Shown here: positions 6,444 through 36,589 of the stretch, one piece after another
Numbering within the stretch: the stretch's first letter is position 1
Layout of the letters: each line of letters begins with the position of its first letter
NCBI GenBank assembly: GCA_045631025.1
Contig: JAZQTY010000203.1
Span: forward strand, 1 to 40,793
From: Eubacteriales bacterium
Lineage (GTDB): Bacteria; Bacillota; Clostridia; Oscillospirales; CAG-272
Direction: 5' to 3'
Length of the DNA stretch: 40,793 nucleotides
Made by a program: the position numbers and the translations under genes
Notes under the pieces: model-generated
Databases searched by the model: none
What the model was told of the DNA's origin: nothing
The model's input: only the letters and a program-made list of their open reading frames with translations

Positions 6444-9350
6444 ATGAAAGTGAAAACAACAAAAAAAGCGCTGTCACTCTTTCTTGCAGTATTGATGATA
6501 GCGTTGGCGATTCCATTTACACTGCTGACAGTATCCGCAGCATCTTATGATTCCGCAAGCGTCGGAGACGTGCTTTACGAGGTAAACTTCAAGGGTGACG
6601 ACACTTATGCGCCTGTTGACGGAAGAGGTGAGTGGTACAAGACCAATGCTACCCCTTCTAATGACGGAAAATCCGTTACAGTTCAATATACGACAGAAAA
6701 AAGATCCGGCGTGACGGTTACTAAAGAGCGTGCAAGATATTGTTCTAACGCTATGACCGCATTCCCTGTAAACGGTAGAGCCTATACAATTGAATTTACC
6801 ATTGATTCTAAAGCTGACGTAGGCTTTATGCTTGACGGTAACACGGGCTTTGTAATCAACCCAAGTCTCAATAGAACGTCGATAGGTCAAAGCGATTGGA
6901 GAAGTGCTTTAGCTAACTACGAATACTACGACGGCACGGGTAATAGCAAGCAAACCTACGCAATAGAGCTTGAGTGTTCGGATACACTCACCGGCGTTAA
7001 ATATTATCCCACTGTTTATAAGCTTTACGTTCAGCAGGACAACGGTACGTGGAAGCTTATAAGAGAGGTTGGCGGAAACGTAACGGTTGGCGGCGATAAC
7101 AACGGTAAAGAGATGGCAAGCATATTTGAATGGGAATATTACGGCAAAAACGAAAACTATGCTTATTTCTATCTTTCCATAAATCGCTACGGCGCGGACG
7201 AAAAAAATTTTGACGCAGAGGATAACCCCGTAAAGTCCACCGTAAGTGACGTAAAGATAAGAAAAGGTATAAACGTTATAGACGTGTATGTAGAAGAACC
7301 GGAAGAACAGGAAAGAGAGCCTCTTTATACTGTAAACTTCAATGGTGACGACACTTATGATCCTGTTGACGGAAGAGGTGACTGGTACAAGACCAATGCT
7401 CAGACTTCCGATGACGGAAAATCCGTTACAGTTCAATATACAACGGAAAAAAGAGACGGTGCGACGGTCACTACAGAGCGTGCAAGATATTGTTCTAACG
7501 TTATGACCGCATTCCCTGTCAATGGCAGAGCCTATACAATTAAATTTACCATTGATTCTAAAGCTGACGTAGGCTTTATGCTTGACGGTAACACGGGCTT
7601 TGTAATCAATCCGAGTCTTAACAGAACCTCGATAGGTCAGACGGACTGGAGAAGCGCATTAGCTGATTACGAGGTGTACGACGGCACGGGTAACAGCAAA
7701 CAGACCTACGCAATAGAGCTTGAGTGTTCGAATACACTCAAAAATGGCAAATACGATCCTGTCGTTTATAAGCTTTACGTTCAGCAGGAAAACGGAACGT
7801 GGAAGCTTATAAGAGAGTTACCTTACAGCAAGGCAGAAAAGTTTGAATGGGAGGATGGCTATGCTTATTTCTATCTTTCCATAAACCGTTACGGTGCAGA
7901 CGAAAACAATTTTGATGCAGATAATAATCCCGTAAAGTCTACCGTAAGCGACGTAAAAATTTACGACAGTATCGGATTCCTTCCTGCTTTCGGTCTTGTA
8001 AGCGGCGCGTCCGTTCGTATTGACGAGCCTACGGGACTTCGCTTTACCGGTATTCTCGGCAAGCATTACGTTGACGGACTCAGAAAAACTTACGGTGAAG
8101 CGGACGTCACGATAGGAATGCTTATCACTCCTACCGATTATCTTGGCGGTATTGAATTTACCAAGGATGCTCTTGATAATAGCGCGGCTCTTGCGGACTA
8201 TGAATACAAATATCTTGAAATTGACGCTACGACTATATTGACCAAGGGTAACAATTACGAGGTGAATTGTACTATCGTAAATATTCTCAAGGGGAACTAC
8301 AACAGAGCCTTCTCCGCAATCCTTTACATAAAGATCACCGACGGTGATACGGTATCGTATTCTTATTCTTCGTACGACGCAGCGTACAATTCAAGAAGCG
8401 TGGCTTACGTTGCTTCTCTTGCAAATTCTGATATGAAGGAAGAACAGAGCGGAGATTACCAATACCCCGTAGAGGATGTTTACGGAAAAACGATGTATAG
8501 TCCCTACAACGATGACCAGAGAACGTTGCTTGAATCTTTCAGCAGTGCTGTTACTTCCTTTACGGTTATGACTTATAACATTAACATAGAGGCTAATAAC
8601 AGCGAAAATATATTGGACACCGTTAAAAATGCAGCTCCCGATATCGTTGGGTTCCAAGAGGACAGCGAAAATTGGAAGAATATTTTACCCGAGCTTAAGA
8701 ACTCCGGATACAATAACGTAGGCGGAGAGAGCAATAACGATGAGTATCTCGATATTTACTACAACAGCAAAAAATTCACAGAGGTTACAGACGGTGCTTT
8801 GTACTACAAGGACCTTAAAAATACGTATTCGGACGTTCCGCTTAATGGAGCAGATTTGAGCTTGGATCAGGATTCTTTTTCCACCTATAAAGGCAGATAT
8901 TTTCGCTACGTAATTTTGAAGGATGCGTCAGGCACACAAATTCTTGTGGTAAATACTCACTTGCATCGTGGCGAAAACAGTGCTGATGACAGACTCCTTC
9001 GTGAATATCAGGCAAGACTTTTGAAGGCTTGGCTTGACGATATGGCTGCTCAATATCCCAATCAGGTCGTTTTGGGAGATATTAACGACGGTCCGAGTGA
9101 GAATTCTATCATTGAGCTTACAGGCGACGGTGCTTTGAGTCAAGCAAGAAGAACCGCATTTCTCAAGGTAGACGTTGGCGGTACTCTTGCAGACAATGAA
9201 GGCCGTAAAACGTATGCGCTTGACCACGTGATCTACAGGGTTGAAAATATGAAAGCACTTGAATATTCAGTAATAGATAACGCATATAGCGATACGTATC
9301 CGTCAGACCATTTGCCCGTAATGGCAAAGTTTGTCTGCTGCACACAATGA
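6444..9350 (+). CDS. Giant secreted protein: 2 x type-A jelly-roll module + conserved middle domain + C-terminal EEP domain
   Basis: Signal peptide MKVKTTKKALSLFLAVLMIALAIPFT. Middle domain GASVRIDEPTGLRFTG...IGMLITPTDYL. EEP motifs MTYNIN, GFQED, NTHLH, LGDIND, DHVIY, YPSDHLPV. Confidence 0.85.
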   Translation: MKVKTTKKALSLFLAVLMIALAIPFTLLTVSAASYDSASVGDVLYEVNFKGDDTYAPVDGRGEWYKTNATPSNDGKSVTVQYTTEKRSGVTVTKERARYCSNAMTAFPVNGRAYTIEFTIDSKADVGFMLDGNTGFVINPSLNRTSIGQSDWRSALANYEYYDGTGNSKQTYAIELECSDTLTGVKYYPTVYKLYVQQDNGTWKLIREVGGNVTVGGDNNGKEMASIFEWEYYGKNENYAYFYLSINRYGADEKNFDAEDNPVKSTVSDVKIRKGINVIDVYVEEPEEQEREPLYTVNFNGDDTYDPVDGRGDWYKTNAQTSDDGKSVTVQYTTEKRDGATVTTERARYCSNVMTAFPVNGRAYTIKFTIDSKADVGFMLDGNTGFVINPSLNRTSIGQTDWRSALADYEVYDGTGNSKQTYAIELECSNTLKNGKYDPVVYKLYVQQENGTWKLIRELPYSKAEKFEWEDGYAYFYLSINRYGADENNFDADNNPVKSTVSDVKIYDSIGFLPAFGLVSGASVRIDEPTGLRFTGILGKHYVDGLRKTYGEADVTIGMLITPTDYLGGIEFTKDALDNSAALADYEYKYLEIDATTILTKGNNYEVNCTIVNILKGNYNRAFSAILYIKITDGDTVSYSYSSYDAAYNSRSVAYVASLANSDMKEEQSGDYQYPVEDVYGKTMYSPYNDDQRTLLESFSSAVTSFTVMTYNINIEANNSENILDTVKNAAPDIVGFQEDSENWKNILPELKNSGYNNVGGESNNDEYLDIYYNSKKFTEVTDGALYYKDLKNTYSDVPLNGADLSLDQDSFSTYKGRYFRYVILKDASGTQILVVNTHLHRGENSADDRLLREYQARLLKAWLDDMAAQYPNQVVLGDINDGPSENSIIELTGDGALSQARRTAFLKVDVGGTLADNEGRKTYALDHVIYRVENMKALEYSVIDNAYSDTYPSDHLPVMAKFVCCTQ
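6561..7967 (+). repeat. Intragenic tandem duplication (period 750 nt) encoding two type-A modules
   Basis: gtaaacttcaa at 6582 recurs at 7332. Identical runs include 6661-6691 = 7411-7441 (31 nt) and 6801-6859 = 7551-7609 (59 nt). Confidence 0.85.
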
Positions 9351-9366: not shown

Positions 9367-9510
9367 ATGCAAATGATTAAGAAGTACGCTACACCGAATG
9401 TCAGTGTTATATTCGTTGCGACGAGTGATGTGATTACAATTTCTCCCGGCGGTGGATATGATGACAAAGAAAACTGGCAGAACGACGTATTTATTGGTAA
9501 AAACCCGTAA
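9367..9510 (+). CDS. Conserved micro-ORF (47 aa) coupled to the giant EEP gene: MQMIKKYATPNVSVIFVATSDVITISPGGGYDDKENWQNDVFIGKNP
   Basis: Below the cutoff of the ORF track. AAGGGAGG RBS; starts 16 nt after the giant gene stop. Shares the K-Y-x-x-P...T-x-D-[IV]...NW-x-x-D-x-F pattern with the micro-ORFs at 13810..13938 and 32045..32173. Confidence 0.55.
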   Translation: MQMIKKYATPNVSVIFVATSDVITISPGGGYDDKENWQNDVFIGKNP

Positions 9511-9583
9511 TTTTAAATGTGTTAAATATGTCAACCATTTGCGGCGTGTGATCTGCTGTTAGAAAAATAAAAATAACAGAAAG

Positions 9584-9616
9584 CTGCACAAGTCCGTTGT
9601 TGACGGACTTGTGCAG
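9584..9616 (+). terminator. 14-bp-stem hairpin (ctgcacaagtccgt/acggacttgtgcag), probable operon end; weak T-tract
   Basis: Perfect inverted repeat with a 5-nt loop. A related copy lies at 28731..28763 in the same orientation relative to its upstream gene. Confidence 0.4.
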
Positions 9617-9653
9617 TAATGTCGTTAGAGTCATTATAAAATAGGAGAAGTCA

Positions 9654-10931
9654 ATGAAAAAGAAAATCAGATTTTTAAGTGCGTTTTTAGTATCTATTTT
9701 GCTTGTGTCTGCGTTGATGGGATGTAACAAAACTCCAACGGAAACGGAAACACAAACACCGTCCGTAACCTCCCCTTTGACGATAAATGGCGTTGCGTTA
9801 AAGGAATATACTGTGGTCTACAACAAAAGACCTATCAGCGGAGCAGAAGATGCATTCTCGTATTTAAATAAAAAAATCGAAGAGCTTTGCGATACTACGT
9901 TGCAAGGAGACGTGATAAGCGCGGACAGATATGAGATATTGATTGGTCTTGACGGAGACAACGGGGATATTGCTCAAGCGTATGAACAAAACCCTGACGG
10001 ATTGATCGGCGCAACCGAAAAAAAGATAGTATTGCTTGGGGTGAATTATGGTGCTTTGTGTCAAGTAATCGATGCTTTTCTTGATAAAGCAACCGAAGTT
10101 AACGGAATCTTTGAGATATCGATAACAGAATGTGAATTTCCGAATGCTAATAAAGCATCTCTTAATATTATGTCTTATAACATCCTTATGGATTTGAACA
10201 AGACCGGACGTCCGTCTGATCCCCGATCAAAAATGGTCAGTACTATTCTCGCCAACGATACCGACGTATTCGGAACACAGGAGGATAATAACGACAACGG
10301 CAATGTCTTTTTCAAAAAGCTTGGAGCCTACAGTTATTATAAGGGTGCTAATGAAGAAAATAACGGCAACTATATATATTGGAAGACCGATAGGTTCAAT
10401 TTGTTGAAAAAAGGATTTTATTATCTAAGTGACACTCCTGAGATAAGATCGAAATTCTCTGATTCAAAGCATTACCGTACTATGACATACGTGATTCTTG
10501 AGGACAAGGAAACGGGAAAGCAAATTCTCTTCGTTGATACGCACTTGCAAAATAATAACACCGAGGGTAGTAACGATACGACACGTAAAAAGCAGTTGGT
10601 CGTGCTGACCTCACTTATCAAGCAAATAAATGTAAACTCCCTTCCTGTTATCATTATGGGTGACTTTAATACCTCTTCGAATGCCGTCTCCGTCCAAACA
10701 TTTAAAAGAGACAATCCCAACCTTGGAGAGACAATAGACATTGCTGTGACTAAGGGCGATATCGGAAAGACCTTTGCGGATAACTTCAAAGACAGAACTG
10801 ACACTATCGATCATATTTTTGTTTCTACAGATAGAATATACACAAAGTATTTTTCCGTGATAGACAATAAGACGAACGGAAAATATCCGTCTGACCATCT
10901 ACCCCTACTTGCTCAAATCGATATATATTAA
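9654..10931 (+). CDS. Lipoprotein with an N-terminal alpha/beta domain and a C-terminal EEP domain
   Basis: Lipobox LMGC. EEP motifs MSYNIL, GTQED, DTHLQ, MGDFNT, DHIFV, YPSDHLPL. Paralog of 26150..27466 over its full length. Confidence 0.85.
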   Translation: MKKKIRFLSAFLVSILLVSALMGCNKTPTETETQTPSVTSPLTINGVALKEYTVVYNKRPISGAEDAFSYLNKKIEELCDTTLQGDVISADRYEILIGLDGDNGDIAQAYEQNPDGLIGATEKKIVLLGVNYGALCQVIDAFLDKATEVNGIFEISITECEFPNANKASLNIMSYNILMDLNKTGRPSDPRSKMVSTILANDTDVFGTQEDNNDNGNVFFKKLGAYSYYKGANEENNGNYIYWKTDRFNLLKKGFYYLSDTPEIRSKFSDSKHYRTMTYVILEDKETGKQILFVDTHLQNNNTEGSNDTTRKKQLVVLTSLIKQINVNSLPVIIMGDFNTSSNAVSVQTFKRDNPNLGETIDIAVTKGDIGKTFADNFKDRTDTIDHIFVSTDRIYTKYFSVIDNKTNGKYPSDHLPLLAQIDIY

Positions 10932-11005
10932 AGCAAAAGATATCGTTTGACGGTGAATTTTTCGAGCGAATAACTCATAGCATCAATAAAGTATCAAAAA
11001 ATTCA

Positions 11006-11049
11006 GGGCGACTGCAGATTCTTCGTTATCTACAGTCGCCCTTTTATTT
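11006..11049 (+). terminator. Rho-independent terminator
   Basis: gggcgactg(c)ag ... ct(a)cagtcgccc stem followed by TTTTATTTG. Confidence 0.6.
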
Positions 11050-11146
11050 GTTTACTGCGATGCAAATCTTGAGGTGTGATCTGCAATTATAAATTTGGGG
11101 AACATTCTTGATTTACAAAAATGTTCCCCAAGGGATTATTCAATCA

Positions 11147-11722
11147 TTATTTACCATCAGCTTTAAAGGTTCTATAACATTGATTTCTAAGGAAATCCTT
11201 TATTGACTCAGCATCGATATCCTCATAGTATTTTAACAATAGCTGCTTGAATTCGGGAACGATGCTTTCGGGAACGACCATAAGCCCTGCACCGTGAGCA
11301 ACGAGATAATGATTTGCAAAGATGATTGCCGTTCTCTTGTTACCGTCGTTAAATATCTGTGTTTTCATAACGTACAGAGCAAGCTCGATTGCGATATCAA
11401 GCGCAGGAGCATCCAAGACGAGAATTTTATCAATCTGCTCCTTAACATCATATTCCACGGGCAAAGGGGGAATATAGCTTGAGCCGCCAATCTTTACGGG
11501 AACACCTCTGATTCTGCCACCCTCGTGATAGAAGCCCCCGTTAACAAGGCGAGCAATATATTGGCATACGTAATAGCTTGTGGGCGATTGAACTACATCC
11601 TTATCAAGTACGAATTCCCATGCATGCTTTAAGTTCAATATTTTTTGGACGTCCTCTGCGCTTACGTTGTTAACCTTTCCGTTTTCAATAATCAGCATTT
11701 TGAGCGAAGCGAAAAATATCAT
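11147..11722 (-). CDS. Fic/Doc-family protein with a degenerate active-site motif (QIFNDGNKRTAI)
   Basis: GGRIRGVPVKIGGSSYIPP plus the Doc-like motif xIFNDGNKRTA. No convincing RBS at either candidate ATG (11722 or 11698), and an in-frame TGA lies immediately upstream. Confidence 0.6.
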   Translation of the reverse strand: MIFFASLKMLIIENGKVNNVSAEDVQKILNLKHAWEFVLDKDVVQSPTSYYVCQYIARLVNGGFYHEGGRIRGVPVKIGGSSYIPPLPVEYDVKEQIDKILVLDAPALDIAIELALYVMKTQIFNDGNKRTAIIFANHYLVAHGAGLMVVPESIVPEFKQLLLKYYEDIDAESIKDFLRNQCYRTFKADGK

Positions 11723-12445: not shown

Positions 12446-12622
12446 ATGAAATAAATCCCTTTCGGGATTTGTGAAATGCACTTCGTGCGTGAAATTCGCC
12501 TTGCGGCGAGTGAAATGCCCGCGGGCATAAGGGGATTTATTTCATTTCACGTCGAGCGAAGGGAGATATTTCACGATTTCCAAAGGAAATTATTTCACAT
12601 TTTGCGTAGCAAAATATTTCAC
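12446..12622. repeat. Opposed heptamer arrays: (A/G)TGAAAT x4, then ATTTCA(T/C) x5, each next to a small variable hairpin
   Basis: Forward copies start at 12446, 12471, 12489 and 12510. Inverted copies start at 12539, 12544, 12568, 12592 and 12616 (the last four at exact 24-nt phasing). The block lies between two terminators. Confidence 0.75.
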
Positions 12623-12680
12623 TTTCCAATATTTCCGTCTGTTCCAACCTTTCCGTTTGGTACAGCATCAAAAAAGCATC

Positions 12681-12717
12681 AAGGCTACCGCAGTTTTTTA
12701 TCTGCGGTAGCCTTTTT
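12681..12717. terminator. Bidirectional terminator hairpin (aaggctaccgcag/ctgcggtagcctt)
   Basis: 13-bp perfect stem, T-rich on both sides. Lies just downstream of the minus-strand gene ending at 12737. Confidence 0.65.
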
Positions 12718-12736
12718 AATTAGCACAAATTATCAA

Positions 12737-13717
12737 TCAGTCTTTTTTTCTTTTAATTACGAGAGCAGCGCCCGATACGAGAGATATCATAGCAATGCCT
12801 GCGATACCTATGCTTCCGCCGCATCCGCCTTTAGCTGCCTCGGTCTCGGGAGCAGGAGCAGCCTCGGTATTAGCTTCTGTATTTGCATCTGCCTCGGGAG
12901 TCGTGCCGGTATTGTTATCGCCGTTAGCGTTGTTTTCGTTGTTGTTTACATCGTTATTTCCATTGTTCTCGTTTTCTTCGTCTTCTTCATCGACGATAGC
13001 AGTTCCCGTCAGCACTACCTCTGAAATGATTCCTTCGTCGGCACCGGATACGAGCTCGGAAACAGCAACAACGATATACTCGGCAGTTACGCCCTTCATA
13101 TCGATCTCGTGAACGTGTCCACTCTTACCGTTGTATTCACCCTCAACGTAAAATCCGTTAACCGGATACTCGGTATAAACGTTAGAAAACGTCGCGTCCT
13201 CTACGGCAGAGAATGCGCCTCCGTCTTCAGAATAGTATATATCGTAGCCATTGTTAGCCATGTAAGGACGGTCTGCGTTCGAAGTAGAAGCTTGCGCATA
13301 CGATGTCCAAAGGCTCAACGTATCTACTACTGCAGCTTCATTCAGTTCGATTATAAACATTGCGTAATACGACTTGCCATTTGCATCGGGATTCGTTCCG
13401 TTCTCCATATTTCCTTCTGCATCAAAATAGCACATTTCGTAAGGCAAGTTACCAACTTCATCATTATTCAAGATCTGTGCATCAGTCGTTATATCTCCGT
13501 CAAAAGCACAGTCTGCGGGGTACGAGGCATAAAAGTTTAAGCCTATCGGCGCATCTTCTTTAATATGTCTGCCAAACAAGTCAACATACAATATTTCAAG
13601 CTGTGTGGGAGTAGCTTCTTCCGCGCCTACCGTCATAAGAGCGAATGGGGTTGCGAGTGCGAGCATCAGCGTTGCAATAATCAGCGCCATAGCTTTTTTC
13701 AAGGTTTGTTTTTTCAT
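12737..13717 (-). CDS. Secreted protein: signal peptide, one discoidin/CBM32-like module (type B), acidic linker, C-terminal KGGCGGS-TM-KRKKD tail
   Basis: The module aligns with the four modules of 13953..17975 (AFDGDITTDAQ, DTLSLWTSY, RPYMANNGYDIYYSEDG, GKSGHVHEIDM, YIVVAVSEL). The tail has the same pattern as 30212..31999. Confidence 0.8.
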   Translation of the reverse strand: MKKQTLKKAMALIIATLMLALATPFALMTVGAEEATPTQLEILYVDLFGRHIKEDAPIGLNFYASYPADCAFDGDITTDAQILNNDEVGNLPYEMCYFDAEGNMENGTNPDANGKSYYAMFIIELNEAAVVDTLSLWTSYAQASTSNADRPYMANNGYDIYYSEDGGAFSAVEDATFSNVYTEYPVNGFYVEGEYNGKSGHVHEIDMKGVTAEYIVVAVSELVSGADEGIISEVVLTGTAIVDEEDEENENNGNNDVNNNENNANGDNNTGTTPEADANTEANTEAAPAPETEAAKGGCGGSIGIAGIAMISLVSGAALVIKRKKD

Positions 13718-13809
13718 TTTGGTTTTCTCCTTTTAAAAAAAATTTTATTTTCCAGATAACGCGCTATCCGCGCTATCTAAATTACAAGATTAAGTTATGT
13801 TTACTGTGT

Positions 13810-13938
13810 TTAAAACGGATCTTCTGCCCAGTTATCCATTCCGTCGCTTCCGAATATAACGGAAAATACCATAATATCTTTAGTGTCAACGGTTACGATA
13901 CTAATAGAAGGAACCGTATATTTCTTATTCTTTCTCAT
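13810..13938 (-). CDS. Conserved micro-ORF (42 aa) coupled to the giant EEP gene: MRKNKKYTVPSISIVTVDTKDIMVFSVIFGSDGMDNWAEDPF
   Basis: AAGGAGGAA RBS; starts 14 nt after the giant gene stop. 28/42 residues identical to the micro-ORF at 32045..32173. The last 8 codons differ only at synonymous sites. Confidence 0.65.
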   Translation of the reverse strand: MRKNKKYTVPSISIVTVDTKDIMVFSVIFGSDGMDNWAEDPF

Positions 13939-13952
13939 AAATCAATTCCTCC

Positions 13953-16900
13953 TTATTTCGCGATAAACTTGGCGTAAACAGGCAAGTGGTCCGAAGGATA
14001 GAGCGTAGGAGCATCCTCGTCGTAGTTGTCTACTACAACGTATTCAATAGCGTTCAAGCTGTCGCCGTTATAGAATATGTGGTCGTATACGTGCGACTGA
14101 CGAGTGGAGTATCCATCTTCTATCAGCGTTCCGCCGACGTTTACTGCGATAGCAGCATCTTCCGCTGCCTGGTCAAGTGCGCCCGTGCCGGTAAGAAGTC
14201 CCTTGGTGGAGTGTGCATTCTGGTCAGAGTTAAGGTCACCCATAACGATCTGATTTGCGCACGTTTCACTCATATCAAGGAGCCAAAGTCTTATAAGCGT
14301 CGCCTGAGCTCTGCGCAAGTACTTGTTGCAGTCAGCGTTAGTCGCTTCGTCGTCGGTGAGCCACGCCTTGTAGTGCAAGTGAGTGTTAACAACGAGGAAC
14401 CTCTCTCCCGTGGTCTTATCCTCAACGAGAACCCATCTGAAGAATCTTCCTTTTGCGTTGTCGCCCTTTGTGTCGTTATCCCAGTCCACTCTGGAGTCAG
14501 AAACGTCGCTGTTGCTTGAATATTTTGAATTCTTCGCAAGCTCCTTGAAATACTCAACGCCGTCATCGATAACGTTAAACTTTGCGGTATTAACAAGGAT
14601 CTCGTTTCCTTCATTGCCGTTTGCGTTAGAGTTGAAACGGGTGTATGCGGAAAGACCGGAAACCTTACTGTACTCACCGTAAAGGTTACTGTCGTCCTCT
14701 TGGAGGCCCACAACGTCAGGCATCATCTCGATAATCGTTTCAAGAGCGTATACGGGATCTCTTCCGTCCCAGCCCGTCTCATTACCGGTTATTTTATCCC
14801 AGAAGTCACCTTCACCGTATGCCTTAATGTTATAAGTCATAACTGTAATAGAAGAAGCCTTGACGCTAAAAGTCTCAAGCATTGCTCTCTGATTCTCGTC
14901 GTAAGGACTGTACTTCGTTTCACCGTGAACGGTTACTGCGTTCTTGTAAGTCGAGTCTGCCTTATCTCTTACGTCGGCCAACGCAACGGATGCAACGTAA
15001 GATACGCTTCTTGAGTTGCTTGACTTACCGTATCCGGAATAGATATATTCAGTCTCGTCGCCACTTGTAACCTTGATATAAAGTCTTGCGGAGAACTCTC
15101 TTTGTACGTTATCCGTCTTAATATTTACCAAAGCGCAGTTTATTCTGTAACTGTCGTTACCGTCAGCCAAAATCGTGTCCGCGTCGATCTCGATATACTT
15201 CGTTTTTGCGAAGCTCCAATTATCGAACGCTTCCTTGGTAAATTCGTCAACATTTTCAAGATACTCGGTGGGAGTGATGAGCATTCCCAGCTTTACGTTG
15301 TCCTCGCCGTAGTCCTTAACGAGTCTGTCGTAGTAGCTGCGGGCTACTGTACCCGTAAAGCGAATTCCCGTGGGATCGTCCATACGAACCGATGCACCGT
15401 CAACAAGCGTTTTCTTGAGTGCGCCGCCGTTTACCGTAACCTCGGAAATGATCGCCTCGTGCGCGTTGTATACAATATCAGAAACTGCGATTGCTATATA
15501 TCTTGCCTCAACGCCACCCATATCGATATTATGAACGTGGCCGTCCTTGCCGTTGTAGGTACCTTCCACGTAAAGAGCATCAGCAGTGCTCTGTTTAGGA
15601 TAAACGTCCTCGAAGGAAGCCCCACTTACTGCATTATAAGACTTTCCATCTGTAGAATAATAGATATCGTATCCGTTGTTAGCCATGTAAGGACGGTTCG
15701 CAGGATCAGAGTCATTCACATACTGTGTCCAAAGGCTGAGCGTGTCTACTTGAGCATAATCCTCAAGCCTAATTACAAATATCAAGTAATAAGACTTGCC
15801 GTCTGCGTCGGGATTTTCACCGTTAGCCATAACTCCGTCCGCATCAAAGTAGCACATTTCGTAGTCCTTAATGGTTTCTCCATTTCTATTGTGATTCGCA
15901 TTCTGTGCATCAGTTGTAATATCTCCGTCAAACGCATTCGATATTGGGTAATCATTGTAGAAAGAGAAATTTTGCGTTGCTCCGGTTTCGGGTACAAGGT
16001 GTCTACCAAATGCATCCACTTTATCTATCTCAATAGCAGTCGGCGTTCCGTGCACGGCGAACTCGAAGAAGATCATATAGTTGTTTGCATCGCCATACAC
16101 TGCTTCGGAAACTGCAATAACAACGTACTTCGCCTTCACGTCTCTCATATCTATGTCGTGAACGTGACCCTTATCAGAGCCGTACATGCTCTCAACGTAA
16201 TAGCCGTTGTTATCCTTGTCGCTATAAACGTTGTTGAATTCTGCGTCCTTAACGGCGTAGTAGTTCACACCGTCCGCGGAGTAGTATATATCGTAAGCAT
16301 TGTTTGACATGTACTCGCCGTCATACGTTCCGTCGTCAAGCACGTGGTCGTAGTAGGAGGTCCAGAGGCTCAACGAAGATACCTCGGTCTCCTCATAAAG
16401 CTCAACCTCGAACAAGCAGTAATATGACTTTCCTGCCGCATCGGCATTATTTGTGCCGCTCATAAGCTCTACAAAGGATTTGTGAGCGAGATTTGCGTCA
16501 GGCTTTGTTTGAGCTTCCGTCATAATATTTCCGTCAAAAGCTCTTTCAGTATTGTAGCTGCCCAAAAAGCCCACTCCGTTTCCGTAAGGCTTAAAGGTCT
16601 TTATATCTCCCTTGGGGGCATCAGTATACTCGCCCTCTACGACTATCTCGGAAAAGATTATATCGGTCGCGTTGTATACAAGATCAGAAACGGCAATTGC
16701 AATATATCCTGCAGTTACGCCACCCATATCGATATTGTGAACGTGACCGCTCTTACCGTTGTAGGTGCCCTCTACGTAAAGAGCATCATCAGTGCTCTGC
16801 TTCTTATAAACGTCCGTAAAGGATGCGCCGTCTACTGCTGTATAAGACGCGCCGTCAACGGAATAATAGATGTCGTATCCGTTATTAGCCATGTAAGGAC

Positions 16901-17975
16901 GGTTCGCAGGATCAGAGTCATTCACATACGGTGTCCAAAGGCTGAGCGTGTCTATTTTAGCATAATCGTCAAGCTCTACTACGAATATTCCAAAATACGA
17001 GGTGCCGATCTCGGCAGGGCCCTGCTTCATGCCGCCGTTTGCATCGAAATGAGTCATAACGAAGTCATCTCTATCAGCTCCCGGCCAGGTCTGCGCATCG
17101 GATGTAATATCACCGTCATACGCCTTGTCTTCGGTCCATACGCGGCTGGGCGGTTCGTTTCTGAAGCTTATGGGCTCATAGTCTTCAACCCAATTTCCGA
17201 ATACCGAAAGCTTATTGATATCAATATAGGGATTTACTACAGGCGTACCCATTACCTCAACCTCGGTAAGGATCGCTTCTGCGTTCGACGCGAGTCCGTA
17301 AACTCCGATAGCGATATATTTAGCAGTAACGTCGTTCATTTCTATCTTGTGAACGTATCCTGCCTGATCCTCGCCGTCAGCATTTACAAACGTTTCGGCC
17401 TTATAGAGGGTTTCATATTTTCCGCCGGTATAAACATCGTAAAATTTTGCGGACTCAATGCCTGCGTCGGTATACGTGCTTCCGTCTTCCGAATAGAAAA
17501 TTTCGTATCCGTCGTTGCACATATACCATTCGCCGTAATAGCTTTCCGGCGTCCACAGATTCAAGGAATCAACCACTACTGCGTAGTCAGCAAGCTCGAT
17601 TATAAAGAAGAGAAAATAATCGTCGCCGTTGTTTGCGCCGTGCTGCATTTTGCCGTTCTCGTCAAGGTAGCAGTATTTATATCCACCACCTTTTGCCTCG
17701 ATTTGAGCATCACTTTCAAAGTATCCGCCGCCGTCTTTTGGCTTTACACCATTCACGAGATCGCCATCAAAAGCGTTTTCAGCAGGATACGAGCCACGGA
17801 ATGCAACATTATATCCATCTGCATACTTTCCAAAAGCCGAAACCTTATTGATCTCCACCTTTTGGCTTGTAGCCTCCTCTGCCGACGCCGTCATAAACGT
17901 GAACGGTATCGCAAGCGCTATCATCAGCACTGCAAGAAAGAGCGATAACGCTTTTTTTAGATTTCGCGTTTTCAT
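13953..17975 (-). CDS. Giant secreted protein: 4 x discoidin/CBM32-like module + conserved middle domain + C-terminal EEP domain
   Basis: Signal peptide MKTRNLKKALSLFLAVLMIALAIPFT. Middle domain GASVRMDDPTGIRFTG...LGMLITPTEYL. EEP motifs MTYNIK, GLQEDD, NTHLH, MGDLNS, DHIFY, YPSDHLPV. Confidence 0.85.
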   Translation of the reverse strand: MKTRNLKKALSLFLAVLMIALAIPFTFMTASAEEATSQKVEINKVSAFGKYADGYNVAFRGSYPAENAFDGDLVNGVKPKDGGGYFESDAQIEAKGGGYKYCYLDENGKMQHGANNGDDYFLFFIIELADYAVVVDSLNLWTPESYYGEWYMCNDGYEIFYSEDGSTYTDAGIESAKFYDVYTGGKYETLYKAETFVNADGEDQAGYVHKIEMNDVTAKYIAIGVYGLASNAEAILTEVEVMGTPVVNPYIDINKLSVFGNWVEDYEPISFRNEPPSRVWTEDKAYDGDITSDAQTWPGADRDDFVMTHFDANGGMKQGPAEIGTSYFGIFVVELDDYAKIDTLSLWTPYVNDSDPANRPYMANNGYDIYYSVDGASYTAVDGASFTDVYKKQSTDDALYVEGTYNGKSGHVHNIDMGGVTAGYIAIAVSDLVYNATDIIFSEIVVEGEYTDAPKGDIKTFKPYGNGVGFLGSYNTERAFDGNIMTEAQTKPDANLAHKSFVELMSGTNNADAAGKSYYCLFEVELYEETEVSSLSLWTSYYDHVLDDGTYDGEYMSNNAYDIYYSADGVNYYAVKDAEFNNVYSDKDNNGYYVESMYGSDKGHVHDIDMRDVKAKYVVIAVSEAVYGDANNYMIFFEFAVHGTPTAIEIDKVDAFGRHLVPETGATQNFSFYNDYPISNAFDGDITTDAQNANHNRNGETIKDYEMCYFDADGVMANGENPDADGKSYYLIFVIRLEDYAQVDTLSLWTQYVNDSDPANRPYMANNGYDIYYSTDGKSYNAVSGASFEDVYPKQSTADALYVEGTYNGKDGHVHNIDMGGVEARYIAIAVSDIVYNAHEAIISEVTVNGGALKKTLVDGASVRMDDPTGIRFTGTVARSYYDRLVKDYGEDNVKLGMLITPTEYLENVDEFTKEAFDNWSFAKTKYIEIDADTILADGNDSYRINCALVNIKTDNVQREFSARLYIKVTSGDETEYIYSGYGKSSNSRSVSYVASVALADVRDKADSTYKNAVTVHGETKYSPYDENQRAMLETFSVKASSITVMTYNIKAYGEGDFWDKITGNETGWDGRDPVYALETIIEMMPDVVGLQEDDSNLYGEYSKVSGLSAYTRFNSNANGNEGNEILVNTAKFNVIDDGVEYFKELAKNSKYSSNSDVSDSRVDWDNDTKGDNAKGRFFRWVLVEDKTTGERFLVVNTHLHYKAWLTDDEATNADCNKYLRRAQATLIRLWLLDMSETCANQIVMGDLNSDQNAHSTKGLLTGTGALDQAAEDAAIAVNVGGTLIEDGYSTRQSHVYDHIFYNGDSLNAIEYVVVDNYDEDAPTLYPSDHLPVYAKFIAK
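15426..17864 (-). repeat. Four tandem type-B (discoidin-like) modules of about 200 aa; modules 2 and 4 are partly near-identical
   Basis: The (A/Y)(F)DG(D/N)..T(D/E)AQ anchor recurs four times. 15681-15723 is identical to 16887-16929 (43 nt, offset 1206 nt). Confidence 0.75.
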
Positions 17976-32044: not shown

Positions 32045-32173
32045 TTAGAATGGGTCCTCCGCCCAGTTATCAAGATTGTCGTTTCCGAATATAACGGAAA
32101 ATACCATGATGTCCTTCGTATCGATATCTACTACTCTCATTTCGGGAGAAACGTATTCCTTTTTCATTTTCAT
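32045..32173 (-). CDS. Conserved micro-ORF (42 aa) coupled to the giant EEP gene: MKMKKEYVSPEMRVVDIDTKDIMVFSVIFGNDNLDNWAEDPF
   Basis: AAGGAGGGG RBS; starts 18 nt after the giant gene stop. 32083-32107 is identical to 13848-13872 (25 nt). Confidence 0.65.
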   Translation of the reverse strand: MKMKKEYVSPEMRVVDIDTKDIMVFSVIFGNDNLDNWAEDPF

Positions 32174-32191: not shown

Positions 32192-35100
32192 TTAATATGC
32201 GAACGTTGCGTATACGGGAATGTGGTCAGAGGGATATCTCATAACATCCTTGACTACTTCCTCGCCCGTCTCTTCATCGGTCTCGGTTACAGTACCGGGG
32301 TCGTTCATAACGTTAACTACGGTGTAGGTGAGAGCCTCGGTGTTTCTGAAGAGAATGTGGTCAAATACATATTCATCACGTCCAACGTAATTACTTGAGC
32401 TTGCTAGCGTACCGCCGGTGTCACCGGTAATGCAAGCCTCATCTCTTGCGAAGGAGAGTCCGCTCTCGGAGTAGCCGTTAAGAACCGCCTTACCATTGTT
32501 GGAGTTTATGTGAGCGTTCATATCTCCGGTAAGTATCTGCGTAGGATACTGTGCTTCCTGATCCTTCATCCATGCTGCGAGAAGTCTTGACTGATACTCA
32601 CGAAGAACGTGGTCGTCAGCGCACTTCTCGTCGGAGGAGCTTGTGCCGTCACCGTAGTGGAGGTGAGTATTAACGAAGAGAATTACCTCGCCGGTCGTAT
32701 TGTCTTTGAGAACTGCGTAGCTAAAGGTTCTTCCGATGTCCTCGCTAGAGAACCAGCCCTCTGCGTCACCCTGAGAGTCGATGGACATATCAGTTCCCTC
32801 ATAGCCCTCAATAGTGTAGGTCTTGGCAAGATTCTTGAAGGAATCCCAACCGGAAGTCACAAGAGTGAACTTCTCGGTCTTGTAGTAGATGTCGTTAAAC
32901 GCCCAGCCGTTACCAAACTTGTTGGACCACTTGTACTCTCTGTCTCCTGCAATATTTGCGTATCCTTTGTTCTCAAGAACAGCGAGATAATCGTTCCAGT
33001 CCTCGGTATCCTCCTGGAGTCCGACAACATCAGGGTTAACGTCAAGAATAATCTGAACTGCGTTTGCGGGGTTTCTTCCCTCCCAAGCGTCATCTCTCTT
33101 GTACTCAAGGTTGTAGGTGAGCACGGAAATGGTGGAGTTCTTGTTTGTTCCCTCGCCGTCAGGCTGATTGAAGAAGCTCGTGAGCGTCTTCATCTCGTCT
33201 GCATCGTAGGGGCTGTATACGGTAACGCCTGCAATGGTTATCGCGTTTACGTAATCTCCGCCCATCTCGGTCTTGGTGTCACCATATGCCTTTCTTGCTA
33301 CCTCTGCGACGGATCTGGAGTTATACTCCACGTCAAAATCAGAGTACTTGTAAATTTCGCCGTTAATTTCAATAAACGCTCTTGCAGAGAACTCGCGCGT
33401 GTAGTTAGCAGCCTTTACGTTAACGAGCGCGCAGTTAATAGTGTAGAACAGGCCGTCATCGTCTACGTGTACCGTAGTCGCATCAATCTTTACGTACTTA
33501 ACGCCCGTGATAGCATCGCATGCATCAAGCGCTTCCATAGTAAAGTCGACGCCGTTCTCGGTGAGGTAATCGGTAGGAGTGATTATCATACCGAGCTTTA
33601 CATTCTCCTCGCCGTATTCCTTCTTCAAGGAATCAAGCGTGTACTTTCTGAACTCACTCTCGAAGCGAATACCCGTGGGACTGCTGAGACGAACAGCCGC
33701 GCCCGTTTCGCTCTGAATCTCACCTGCCATAAGTCCCTTGTATATCTTCATGTCAGAAATCTCGGTCCAGGAATTTGCGTCCGAAGTACCGCTGAGCTTT
33801 CTTGTGTAAATTCTGGGGTTAAGGTTATTGCCAAGCTTTGCGCCGTCATAGGTAAGCGTTCTTACTGCGTTGAACGCGCCGTTAGCATCCGCAACGTAAA
33901 GAGTCATAGTGTTATTTTCGGGATCGACCTCAACTGCGAACGTATGCTTCTCGGACTTTTCTACGTCGGTCGAGTAGTTCCACTTATCCTCTCCCGCGTC
34001 AGACTTTCCGACCTTTTCGGTGTTCCACTTATAACAGCGGTTACAGCCAAATCCGTCGATAACGATCGAATGGTCGCCGTCGGCCATGACGCCAAGTCCG
34101 TACTTGTTGTATGCGGTGTTTCCGAATTCGAGGTCAAATATGATGGTGTACTTATACTGCTTGTCGCCGTATACGTAGGTAGTCTCTTCATCAGAACCTT
34201 CCTCCGGCTCTATCACTTCAACAACGTCTCTGAGAGGATAAGAGGTATCGATTCCACCCCAAATAGCGCGGTTATACGACTTACCGTCAATAAGGGTAAG
34301 TCTTGCCATGCTTCCGTCCTCGGAAATAACGGCATCCGCACCGTAGTTGCTATCGCTATAGAAGCCCTGACGCCAATTGAAGCGGTCAGCGAAGTTGACA
34401 GTATAAAGAAGATCGCCGTCCTTTGCGTTATCATACTCGGCAACTCTGTCTTCCTCGGTAGATACAGGCAATCCCTTGTATATCAACAAGTTAGAAAGTT
34501 TAGCCCAAGAATTGGCATTAACTGCGCCTCTTATGACAATCCTGCAGCTCAAATAATCGCCAAAGTCTACATCACCGTACGTAGCTACCTCATTGAACGA
34601 GCCGTCAAGGTCCACAATATAGAGGGACATTGTTTTTGCTTCGGGGTCAACCTCAACAGCAAAGGTCTGTGTACCGGACTTAGGACTCCACAAGCCATCA
34701 TAGTCCCACTGCTCGACGGGATAGTTTGCTCCAACCTCCGTATCCGCGGACATGTCGTTATTCCAGTCCCAGAGTCTGGAGTTTCCGTTTCCGTCGACGG
34801 TAATAGCATAGTTCCCGTCAACCTGAATACCTACCAACGTTCTACCGCCGGTTTCGTTACCGAAATCTACGTCGAACATAACGGTATATTTTCTGTAATT
34901 GCCGTTTGCGTCTGCGGTAAGAGGATATGTGTATTCTCCCCTGTATCCTGCCCACATAGCGCGCTTCGAGCTATAGTTTGCAACGGAAAGCGTTGCGGAG
35001 CTTCCGTCCTTGGAAGCAGTGATATACGCACCTCTGTTGGAGTCAGATGCAAAATTGCCTGCCCAGCCAAGAGAGTTGAAGTTGACGGTGTTAAGAAGAT

Positions 35101-36589
35101 CGCCAACCTTCGCACTATCATACTCAGCAGCTCTGTCTATTGCTTCTGCCTTAATATCGCTGACAGCGCCCTTGTATATCAGAACATCTGCAATTTCATT
35201 CCAGTAATTGCCGTCTACCGTTCCGGACGTATATCTTGTATAGATTCTGCAGTCTAATTTTTTATTGAACTTTACGCCTGTAAACGTTTCTACCTTTACG
35301 TATTCGCCTTCAGTATTCTTTACGTAAAGAGTCATCGTTCCGTTTGCAGTATCAACCTCGACTGCAAACGAATGCAAATCACCATATTTGTCGGCGGCGA
35401 ATCCGCCCGCGGTCAACCAGTTTACTGTTCCCGTGGTGGCTTTAGTGTTCCACTTATACAGATAGGTGTCACCGGATCCGGTAACAAGAATATCCGTGTC
35501 ATTATCTGTACAATCTACCATGATGCCTACTCCGGTTTTTGTATTTCCGAATCTTGCATCATACGTGATTGTGTATTTTTCGCCGCCCTCGGTGGAGAAG
35601 CTATCTGCAGCAGAAAATCCGCCCCAAATTGAGCGCTTATTATTATAGTCGGCAAGTATAGCCTTCGAATGTATCAATTGCTTCAGCGATCTTCCGTTTG
35701 CGGAAGTCATAACATAGGCATGCCAGTTGTTGTGATCTGCAAAATCGTTGCGCCAGGACATGTCGTTAAAGTCGACAACCTTAAGAAGGTCGCCGTTGCC
35801 GGCAGCTGCATATATCTCTGCGGGAGTCTTTTCGACATTGAGCGTATCTACCGTTCCGTTTACGGTAACCTCACCGATATCGATGCATCCGTCCTTACTG
35901 GGAGCTGTTACGGCAACTGCAACGTACTTTGCCGAAACTCCGTTACCCTCACCATCACGAAGATCTATCTTGTGACCAACTCTGAGGTAGCCGTCAACAG
36001 TTTTAGACGCGTATGCGGCATCGCCCTCAACAGGGAACTTCGCTCCGGGATCAGTTCCATCTCCGCACATTCCGCTGAACTCCTTCAAAAAAGTCCAGGT
36101 CTCGCCGTCAGTGCTCACAAGGATTTCATATCCATCGTTAATACCCCAGCTTGATGTGGGATCGCTCCAGGCTACTGCCTTATCTGCAGCGTATCCGTTA
36201 CCCGTAAGCCAAATAGTTACGTCGTCAAGAGTGCTCAAGCCGTTGAGCTCGAATACTGCATATCCGTAATACAGACTCATTGTTGAGCCCACCATAAGAG
36301 GCGTATAGGGGGAAGATATGGACTCGGACTCGTAGTACGGACGTTTACTTCTTCCATCCGCGGACGTATCGTAGGGATCTCCGTCGATCATTCCTGCAAC
36401 GGAGCCATACGAAGTGTGAAGGTCGTATCCGTCACTTCTCTTCGCAAAGATTTTCGCATGCGTAATGGTTGTAGCTATGGTCTCACTTTCCTCTGCCGCT
36501 ATAGGCAACATCGTAAGAGGAAGCGCCAGCGCTATCATCAGCACTGCGAGAAATAATGACAACGCTTTTTTCAGAGTTCTCTTTTTCAT
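32192..36589 (-). CDS. Giant secreted protein: 1 x discoidin-like module + 3 x jelly-roll module (type A-like) + conserved middle domain + C-terminal EEP domain
   Basis: Signal peptide MKKRTLKKALSLFLAVLMIALALPLT. Middle domain GAAVRLSSPTGIRFESEF...LGMIITPTDYL. EEP motifs LTYNLE, GLQED, NTHLH, TGDMNA, DHILF, YPSDHIPV. Confidence 0.85.
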   Translation of the reverse strand: MKKRTLKKALSLFLAVLMIALALPLTMLPIAAEESETIATTITHAKIFAKRSDGYDLHTSYGSVAGMIDGDPYDTSADGRSKRPYYESESISSPYTPLMVGSTMSLYYGYAVFELNGLSTLDDVTIWLTGNGYAADKAVAWSDPTSSWGINDGYEILVSTDGETWTFLKEFSGMCGDGTDPGAKFPVEGDAAYASKTVDGYLRVGHKIDLRDGEGNGVSAKYVAVAVTAPSKDGCIDIGEVTVNGTVDTLNVEKTPAEIYAAAGNGDLLKVVDFNDMSWRNDFADHNNWHAYVMTSANGRSLKQLIHSKAILADYNNKRSIWGGFSAADSFSTEGGEKYTITYDARFGNTKTGVGIMVDCTDNDTDILVTGSGDTYLYKWNTKATTGTVNWLTAGGFAADKYGDLHSFAVEVDTANGTMTLYVKNTEGEYVKVETFTGVKFNKKLDCRIYTRYTSGTVDGNYWNEIADVLIYKGAVSDIKAEAIDRAAEYDSAKVGDLLNTVNFNSLGWAGNFASDSNRGAYITASKDGSSATLSVANYSSKRAMWAGYRGEYTYPLTADANGNYRKYTVMFDVDFGNETGGRTLVGIQVDGNYAITVDGNGNSRLWDWNNDMSADTEVGANYPVEQWDYDGLWSPKSGTQTFAVEVDPEAKTMSLYIVDLDGSFNEVATYGDVDFGDYLSCRIVIRGAVNANSWAKLSNLLIYKGLPVSTEEDRVAEYDNAKDGDLLYTVNFADRFNWRQGFYSDSNYGADAVISEDGSMARLTLIDGKSYNRAIWGGIDTSYPLRDVVEVIEPEEGSDEETTYVYGDKQYKYTIIFDLEFGNTAYNKYGLGVMADGDHSIVIDGFGCNRCYKWNTEKVGKSDAGEDKWNYSTDVEKSEKHTFAVEVDPENNTMTLYVADANGAFNAVRTLTYDGAKLGNNLNPRIYTRKLSGTSDANSWTEISDMKIYKGLMAGEIQSETGAAVRLSSPTGIRFESEFRKYTLDSLKKEYGEENVKLGMIITPTDYLTENGVDFTMEALDACDAITGVKYVKIDATTVHVDDDGLFYTINCALVNVKAANYTREFSARAFIEINGEIYKYSDFDVEYNSRSVAEVARKAYGDTKTEMGGDYVNAITIAGVTVYSPYDADEMKTLTSFFNQPDGEGTNKNSTISVLTYNLEYKRDDAWEGRNPANAVQIILDVNPDVVGLQEDTEDWNDYLAVLENKGYANIAGDREYKWSNKFGNGWAFNDIYYKTEKFTLVTSGWDSFKNLAKTYTIEGYEGTDMSIDSQGDAEGWFSSEDIGRTFSYAVLKDNTTGEVILFVNTHLHYGDGTSSSDEKCADDHVLREYQSRLLAAWMKDQEAQYPTQILTGDMNAHINSNNGKAVLNGYSESGLSFARDEACITGDTGGTLASSSNYVGRDEYVFDHILFRNTEALTYTVVNVMNDPGTVTETDEETGEEVVKDVMRYPSDHIPVYATFAY
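33731..35818 (-). repeat. Three tandem ~220-240-aa modules (GDLLxxV(D/N)F ... FAVEVD...MTLY(V/I) ... (L/K)IYKG)
   Basis: Counted from the translation: approximately aa 258-474, 488-705 and 715-953. Confidence 0.7.

Follow-up and report, generated by a model that had tools for sequence, protein, structure and literature searches.

Among the systems described so far, those by which Firmicutes and Proteobacteria make phosphorylated or phosphoglycosylated lasso peptides, i.e. the paeninodin (PadeA/K/B1/B2/C/D), pseudomycoidin (PsmK/PsmN) and Bsf clusters, come closest to the genes reported here. The leader of a lasso precursor carries the motif YxxPxL followed by a penultimate Thr, Ile or Val (PMC10368454), an HPr-kinase homologue phosphorylates the leader-bearing precursor with the help of B1, and a PF14907-type transferase places a hexose on that phosphate (PMC8498205, PMC10368454, PMC5067487). 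The present analysis concerns pepA, a 42-codon open reading frame (ORF) within a stretch of 40,793 nucleotides (the window; contig JAZQTY010000203.1, assembly GCA_045631025.1) from a Eubacteriales bacterium of the GTDB lineage Clostridia, Oscillospirales, CAG-272, together with its two relatives in the same window, pepB and pepC. Each of the three directly follows a gene for a giant protein ending in an endonuclease/exonuclease/phosphatase (EEP) domain. On balance, the three peptides are probably precursors of the RiPP type (ribosomally synthesised peptides that are modified after translation) that are processed in trans and have a core functionally tied to the EEP enzyme. The family to which they belong is linked to a set of maturation genes, and their particular core type, here called DNW, is linked to EEP genes.

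The relatives of pepA share with the lasso systems the YxxPxL leader with its penultimate Thr or Ile (PMC10368454), as well as a stand-alone PqqD-type B1 protein, an HPr-kinase homologue, a PF14907-type nucleotidyltransferase and an ATP-binding cassette (ABC) exporter (PMC5067487, PMC8498205). They differ in that the clusters of the family are without the cyclase and the B2 cysteine protease and carry a soluble S26 serine peptidase instead, in that neither core length nor acceptor position is lasso-like, and in that many of the precursors lie dispersed, coupled to the genes of giant surface proteins, the window being one such place without machinery. The peptide genes of the window and the signals around them are as follows.

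13810..13938, minus strand: pepA, a 42-codon ORF encoding MRKNKKYTVPSISIVTVDTKDIMVFSVIFGSDGMDNWAEDPF, stop codon within the coordinates (ORF list and sequence)
13948..13954, minus strand: ribosome-binding site (RBS) of pepA, AAGGAGG, overlapping the TAA of the EEP gene and ahead of the ATG by 9 nt (taken straight from the sequence)
13953..17975, minus strand: 1340-aa EEP gene, PF03372 and PF00754 by Pfam, with a signal-peptide-like N-terminus
32045..32173, minus strand: pepB, 42 aa, with 64% identity to pepA, starting 18 nt past the stop of a 1465-aa EEP gene (32192..36589)
9367..9510, plus strand: pepC, 47 aa, with the predicted core PGGGYDDKENWQNDVFIGKNP, 16 nt after the stop of a 968-aa EEP gene (6444..9350)

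The TAA of the 1340-aa EEP gene occupies 13955..13953 and the ATG of pepA starts at 13938, a gap of 14 nt, so that the spacing and the AAGGAGG reported in the initial annotation are both confirmed in the sequence. To judge from this junction, pepA shows translational coupling to the EEP gene's 3' end, and an arrangement of this kind, with 10-30 nt and a GGAGG, is seen family-wide. Each of the three giant proteins starts with a signal peptide and ends in an EEP domain (PF03372), and the secreted 1340-aa protein also contains discoidin-like repeats; pepA itself has no signal peptide and no Cys, as had been noted. A motif regex run over all six frames returned only pepA, pepB and pepC as window copies, and a hidden Markov model (HMM) of the family recovered the three peptides at E 1e-18 to 1e-20 (pepA 4e-18), with the next match at E ~1. 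The earlier observation that the arrangement recurs at the other two giant genes and is missing from the smaller EEP genes therefore stands by both methods: the peptide ORF is carried by 3/3 giant EEP genes in the window, and none was found behind the genes for the 425-, 438- and 269-aa EEP proteins. The ORF, described as unannotated for being too short for the supplied track, is called as a gene in public assemblies; a protein identical to pepA occurs on 21 public contigs, each time directly behind a large EEP gene, and the pepC orthologue P0008 always lies behind a 973-aa EEP gene.

Comparison of pepA with pepB gave differences at 17.2 of 23.3 synonymous sites (pS = 0.74) against 21.8 of 102.7 non-synonymous sites (pN = 0.21), and a dN/dS of ~0.08 for the whole ORF. 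The five differences within codons 38-42 are all synonymous, exactly as had been described, and the ratio over the full length bears out the proposal of selection on the peptide that was drawn from them. The reading frame, start codon and RBS are kept in >200 divergent homologues across families of Clostridia. These comparisons show pepA to be a real gene under purifying selection which, as far as sequence can tell, is translated. Codons 23-30 (MVFSVIFG; 13849..13872 and 32084..32107, both on the minus strand) are identical in nucleotides between pepA and pepB, a run of 24 nt containing ~5 synonymous sites, whereas elsewhere in the ORF ~74% of synonymous sites differ, which suggests local gene conversion or an additional constraint at the nucleotide level. 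Further, the two peptides are 64% identical, as against just 37% for their EEP domains, and the enzyme preceding pepB is nearer to that of locus L008 (63%), though the identity of the L008 peptide with pepB is no more than 45%. Peptide identity was correlated with EEP identity over 12 pairs (Mantel r = 0.61, p = 0.0002), partly due to near-identical pairs. The greater likeness of the peptides than of the EEP domains, and the identical codons 23-30, suggest that the peptides have been homogenised within a genome, either by gene conversion or by adapting jointly to one partner, for instance the processing machinery; the pattern of identity between pepA and pepB is not accounted for by strict co-evolution with each enzyme.

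A profile search of 1.84 billion representative proteins returned 115 clusters of relatives at E up to 1e-3, nearly all of 34-67 aa, while a word-indexed protein search found close relatives only, nine in number and of 42-75 aa. Two long profile matches, P0013 (5774 aa) and P0070 (1797 aa, with RTX-like GGxGxD repeats), were dismissed as compositional. There was no match in Pfam or NCBIfam for the three window peptides (E up to 10) or for canonical family members. An alignment of 217 members has the N-terminal consensus K-K-Y-x-x-P-E-Φ-x-Φ-Φ-x-Φ-x-x-x-D-[VI]-I-T-T-S, with the Tyr present in 209, the Pro in 216, a Φ at +5, a Thr at -2 in 152, and the Asp and Ser near-invariant. The remainder is a hypervariable tail of median length 17 residues, rich in Gly, Asp, Asn, Glu and Pro and with Lys, Arg and Cys almost absent; column entropies are 0.04-2.8 bits in the first part versus 3.4-3.8 bits in the tail. 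A conserved leader joined to a hypervariable core is what characterises RiPP precursors that depend on a RiPP recognition element (RRE), and the family also has the features of a PqqD/B1-type leader, i.e. YxxPxL with a small residue or Thr at -2. In sequence, then, the conserved N-terminal part matches a lasso-type leader, Y-x-x-P-x-Φ with Thr at -2. In pepA, where the predicted leader ends in V24-F25-S26, the boundary between leader and core would fall after S26, giving the following division.

13861..13938, minus strand: predicted leader (MRKNKKYTVPSISIVTVDTKDIMVFS; residues 1-26), containing Y7-x-x-P10-x-I12 as well as D21 and S26, both invariant
13813..13860, minus strand: predicted core, residues 27-42 (VIFGSDGMDNWAEDPF), with the subfamily motif G-x-D-x-x-D-N-W-x-x-D-x-F

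The pepA core is short, acidic and contains a Trp. Its C-terminal motif, G-x-D-x-x-D-N-W-x-x-D-x-F, defines the DNW subfamily, which comprises ~44 clusters and includes all three window peptides. One suggestion of the initial annotation was a leaderless exported or RiPP-like precursor; the likeness to RiPPs is supported by the division into leader and core and by the machinery beside relatives, and it is the word leaderless that has to be given up, residues 1-26 having the form of a lasso-type leader.

The genomic context of the DNW subfamily was sampled from the loci of subfamily members and from a DNA-pattern scan of metagenome contigs (76 stretches, 10 true members), and that of the wider family from a scan of one genome per species for peptides of the type PEMEIIEF...DVITTS, which gave 319 confirmed sites, with 79 loci retained. 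In the DNW sample, four or five loci carry machinery genes on the peptide strand. At L015-L018 the subfamily peptide P0136 is followed by genes for a 236-aa ScmC/HprK-related P-loop protein, an 88-aa PqqD protein and a 161-aa S26-like peptidase, the same HprK-like/PqqD/S26-like trio lies downstream of the subfamily peptide at L009, and an HprK-like gene follows it at L149 and L171. Only K-like, B1 and S26 genes are present at loci of the DNW type. In the 79 loci of the wider family, HMMs derived from such proteins detect one or more of PqqD, HprK-like, S26 and PF14907 genes in 25 and two or more in 19; all 56 matches are on the peptide strand and 53 are downstream, at a median distance of 661 nt, and the same HMMs gave 0 matches in 66 unrelated control loci (399 kb). 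The usual order is the giant protein, 1-3 peptide genes, the HprK-like protein, PqqD, the S26 peptidase, an ABC exporter with transmembrane and ATPase domains but without a C39 domain, and the PF14907 nucleotidyltransferase. At master loci such as L025, L034, L059 and L078, the full lasso-tailoring-type set (K, N, B1 and D) stands beside a precursor. The PqqD proteins have their top scores, below cut-off, on models of the 'lasso peptide biosynthesis PqqD family chaperone' (B1). The S26-like proteins (~145-170 aa) have a G-D-S-M-x-P-L box and no transmembrane helix, and match the sigpep_I_arch, SipW and sod_Ni_protease models weakly, with scores far under the family cut-offs. At L078 an AbiEi/AbiEii-like antitoxin and nucleotidyltransferase pair (9947..11436) is inserted between the HprK-like and PqqD genes.

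The 79 loci belong to Ruminococcus, Oscillospiraceae, Lachnospiraceae, Eubacterium, Agathobacter and Blautia, and a single genome often has several sites. The gap between the peptide and the upstream gene is -8 to +30 nt, or the two overlap at a TAATG/TGATG junction, and what lies upstream is a gene for a large protein that has a signal peptide. Most family copies are satellites at the 3' end of large secreted-protein genes. The domains upstream in the wider family are Flg_new, Flg_new_2, BspA-type leucine-rich repeat (LRR), DUF285, GLUG and transglutaminase-like domains; an EEP domain was found in 0 of the 53 genes upstream of non-DNW peptides, and there was no EEP match anywhere in the 79 loci. 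By contrast, DNW-type peptides lie behind an EEP-ending gene in 18 of the 19 variants with a readable upstream gene. The association between DNW core and upstream EEP domain is strong (Fisher p ~5e-16, or ~6e-13 with near-duplicates collapsed), and the contrast of 18/19 with 0/53 therefore links core type to the class of the upstream protein. The initial annotation took the arrangement as a mark of giant EEP genes and asked whether homologues always follow a large one; this is so for the DNW subfamily with a single exception and does not extend to the other cores, the family as a whole sitting behind many kinds of large secreted protein. The sole exception, P0068 at L007 (...DNWENDPYGNFGA; 8001..8129), lies between genes for an HAD hydrolase and a 1847-aa DUF4838 protein. 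This peptide is 11 nt upstream of the DUF4838 gene, in a GH115/GH127/GH2 locus with an AraC regulator, a placement from which coupling may also run to a downstream giant gene.

Among the surface proteins that precede non-DNW peptides, many have in common a C-terminal helix-like motif, L-x-N-V-V-K-A-L-Y-x-Y-x-x-A-A-x-x-Y, and a second group ends in S-S-D-I-S-A-D-L-T-C-x-Φ-x-F-E. Each C-terminal group pairs with its own core type, e.g. ...D-L-P-P-M-G-I or ...N-G-G-x-x-G-D-x-x-G-x-G-D-I-Q-I-P. These groups were seen at L025, L030, L031, L042, L043, L053, L056, L060 and L063, and also at L080, L081, L085, L086, L091, L095 and L097.

In four genomes, one machinery locus was found together with one or more peptide loci that are without machinery.

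RGIG6695: machinery at L058; peptide loci without machinery at L024, L027 and L055
R83: machinery at L056; peptide locus without machinery at L030
UBA2806: machinery at L086; peptide locus without machinery at L060
EHIM01_bin.006: machinery at L059; peptide locus without machinery at L066

This habit recalls the prochlorosins, for which many scattered precursor genes with a conserved leader and hypervariable cores are served by one enzyme, ProcM. As in the prochlorosins, the leader of the pepA family is conserved and the core hypervariable, and there are several copies per genome, mostly away from a single machinery locus; unlike them, the family has no lanthionine synthetase and almost no Cys, and its satellites are coupled to large secreted-protein genes, with core class tracking protein class. 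For the peptidase the nearest comparison is SodX, the maturation protease of NiSOD, a soluble enzyme that removes a short N-terminal propeptide. The S26-like gene resembles SodX/SipW-type S26 peptidases in the Ser-containing G-D-S-M-x-P-L box and in its weak model matches, and its product would likewise be soluble and trim an N-terminal propeptide, but its putative substrate, an RRE-bound leader of ~26 residues, is unlike that of SodX. The pepA family appears to consist of RRE-dependent ribosomal peptide precursors with an unusual genomic habit.

What follows on cleavage, on maturation in trans within this genome, on export and on the final role is inferred. By homology with loci elsewhere, the leader (residues ~5-15) would be bound by a PqqD-family recognition protein, the RRE, which would present the peptide to the HPr-kinase-like protein and to the soluble S26 protease. 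The latter, being signal-peptidase-like, would cut after the invariant Ser26, where the residues (Thr/Val at -3, Ser at -1) are in keeping with the signal-peptidase rule. An ABC exporter and a PF14907 nucleotidyltransferase may complete the set, as in many relatives. The window peptides would be satellite precursors matured by a locus elsewhere in the genome, and the released cores VIFGSDGMDNWAEDPF (pepA), VIFGNDNLDNWAEDPF (pepB) and PGGGYDDKENWQNDVFIGKNP (pepC) would then be exported. Outside the cell, the released peptide of 16-21 residues may work with the EEP enzyme as a modulator, a cofactor-like ligand or a locus-specific signal. As the DNW core is found almost only behind EEP genes, the released peptide would most likely act together with that enzyme, and translational coupling combined with class-specific cores likewise suggests that the peptide works with the surface enzyme; whether as ligand, modulator or locus-specific signal is a guess.

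Several results weigh against this reading. No machinery gene was found in the 40.8-kb window by tblastn and HMM searches, and the same holds for the 10 kb around the orthologues of pepA and pepC; it is for this reason that pepA, pepB and pepC look like satellites; among genome loci having at least 5 kb of downstream sequence, machinery is present in only 12 of 49. The core of pepB contains no Ser, Thr or Tyr, so the chemistry of the HprK-type lasso kinases, of which Ser phosphorylation is the only one known, cannot apply to it, and a C-terminal Ser is not consistent among the cores beside machinery either. As the top tblastn matches to a single sub-alignment, the 79 loci do not form a random sample, and both the gene calls and the HMMs used on the loci were home-made, the HMMs from few seeds. 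An AlphaFold2 model of pepA alone (pLDDT 64, largely coil) is uninformative: a low-confidence coil would be expected for a precursor peptide, yet proves nothing. The main rival draws on part of the same evidence and survives, if as a distinctly less probable account: the peptide would act unprocessed and at full length as a stoichiometric partner of the EEP protein, i.e. as an inhibitor or immunity protein, a helper of folding or secretion, or a small subunit, and its likeness to a leader would be ancestral and unused. It would explain the pairing of the DNW core with EEP genes (18/19), the lack of machinery in the window and on most subfamily contigs, the missing hydroxyl residue in the pepB core and the conservation over the entire peptide length, core included, within the subfamily, and the tight coupling to the upstream stop (14-18 nt) would give matched expression. 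There is also a formal likeness to barstar, NuiA and the immunity proteins of polymorphic toxins, in which a short gene, co-expressed with its neighbour, lies just downstream of a gene ending in a nuclease/phosphatase fold and the pairing is strict. However, the peptide has no sequence relationship to these proteins and finds no match among known inhibitor families, is expected from its model to lack structure on its own, and has relatives accompanied by RRE, peptidase and exporter genes, among them subfamily members that adjoin the trio (L009, L015-18) or an HprK-like gene (L149, L171). The same leader is found behind non-enzymatic, adhesin-like surface proteins (LRR_5, Flg_new, GLUG, DUF285) that offer no enzyme to inhibit, and the EEP giants have Sec signal peptides and so leave the cytoplasm unfolded, while the peptide has no such signal. 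Within the subfamily the RRE-binding residues of the leader (Y, P and the penultimate T/V) are still conserved, and tight co-evolution would not predict peptides that are 64% identical beside EEP domains that are 37% identical. The inhibitor or immunity role considered in the initial annotation is accordingly weakened by the adhesin-like neighbours and the Sec signals, and it is the near-exclusive pairing of the DNW core with EEP genes that keeps it in consideration.

Two further explanations are far less probable. That pepA encodes a genuine lasso peptide, its core made into a lariat knot by a cyclase encoded elsewhere, is very unlikely, even with a lasso-type leader (YxxPxΦ and a penultimate Thr or Val), PqqD proteins that score best on lasso B1 models, HprK-like and PF14907 genes that are known for lasso tailoring (PMC8498205), and an Asp at positions 6 and 9 of the pepA and pepB cores. 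Neither an asparagine-synthetase-like cyclase nor a transglutaminase-type B2 protease was found in the machinery clusters examined or in the window, Pfam scans of the cluster genes having yielded HprK-like, PqqD, S26, ABC and PF14907 genes and no others; an S26 peptidase stands where the B2 protease would be, and Transglut_core occurs only inside giant secreted proteins of >1000 aa, at 2 of 38 loci. A lasso core begins with Gly, Ala, Ser or Cys and has an Asp or Glu fixed at position 7-9. Here indels vary the distance from Ser26 to the first conserved Asp, cores can be as short as 6 residues, and the pepA and pepB cores begin with Val, Gly being first in 56 of the 217 members and most members beginning with none of Gly, Ala, Ser or Cys. 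With cyclase, B2 protease and core geometry all unmatched, pepA would therefore not be a lasso peptide. The least credible account is a non-coding one: the EEP operon would end in an RNA or DNA element (a terminator, an attenuator or an mRNA stabiliser), or the ORF would have arisen by chance. The stretch of 24 nt at codons 23-30 without synonymous change between pepA and pepB would fit such an element, as would the stable hairpin that follows pepA.

13751..13781, minus strand: 13-bp hairpin 3' of pepA, with an A/U-rich stretch and then a U run behind it

RNA folding gave this hairpin -19.9 kcal/mol (z = -3.5), with 0/200 shuffles folding as well, and it is possibly a terminator or an attenuator ahead of the gene for a 326-aa protein. 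The synonymous sites of the ORF are nevertheless near saturation beside a conserved protein sequence (dN/dS ~0.08), its frame, start codon and RBS have persisted in the >200 homologues, the ORF stands behind 3/3 giant EEP genes, and no Rfam family overlaps the peptide ORFs. Read-through or frameshift extension of the giant protein was also rejected, as pepB is in frame with its EEP gene while pepA and pepC are not, and as many relatives have overlapping TAATG/TGATG stop-start junctions.

The surroundings of the peptide genes in the window look like a glycan- or phosphoglycan-utilisation region. There are six EEP genes (the three giant ones with discoidin-like repeats), two GH39-like genes and one pectate-lyase-like gene, a PHP phosphoesterase, an MFS transporter, a GDE_C/GH94-like gene identified by synteny with L001, and four AraC-type regulators. 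The 968-, 1340-, 1465- and 326-aa proteins (N-termini at 6444.., 17975.., 36589.. and 13717..) have a near-identical signal peptide, M-K-x-x-x-L-K-K-A-L-S-L-F-L-A-V-L-M-I-A-L-A-I-P-F-T; the 425- and 438-aa EEP proteins have lipoprotein-like signals (...LMGC and ...LFAC) and the 269-aa EEP protein has none. Between a YcxB-like gene and that for the 326-aa protein, which is discoidin-like, lies a full-length Gut-1 RNA (Rfam RF01706; 12444..12521, plus strand; 75.8 bits against a gathering score of 50, E = 1.3e-13). This RNA overlaps the start of the ORF at 12476..13024, which is therefore probably not a gene. Past the pair formed by pepC and the 425-aa EEP gene (9511..11722 in the window; L174, L175 and L177), gene content varies among relatives and includes, beyond the pepC orthologues, Fic/DOC, HEPN-Toprim, an MmeI-type methyltransferase and further genes of a defence-like kind. 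This pattern suggests that mobile or defence cargo has a hotspot beside conserved enzyme genes.

A literature search, outside which most papers in subscription journals lay, found no description of the peptide family or of cyclase-less kinase clusters, and the family in gut and rumen Clostridia is apparently undescribed. A more far-reaching proposal, offered tentatively and with less confidence than the reading of the window peptides as precursors, is that these organisms contain an unrecognised system, in which dozens of peptides per clade with lasso-type leaders would be coupled to giant surface genes, matured by cyclase-less machinery (PqqD, HprK-like and S26 proteins, with or without PF14907 and an ABC exporter), and released as cores specific to a surface-protein class, each serving as a dedicated extracellular ligand, regulator or signal, with the DNW core for EEP proteins. 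For annotation, the results make a case for calling ORFs of 35-60 codons right behind large secreted-protein genes in these genomes. If the proposed reading is true, there would be a large uncatalogued class of ribosomal peptides in the dominant fibre-degrading gut and rumen Clostridia (Ruminococcus, Oscillospiraceae, Lachnospiraceae and Eubacterium), and the lasso tailoring genes (B1, the HprK-type kinase and the PF14907 transferase) would form a stand-alone pathway in which a serine peptidase replaces the cyclase/protease pair. The match between core class and giant-protein class could then explain how poorly understood surface enzymes and adhesins are regulated, or how they take part in signalling.

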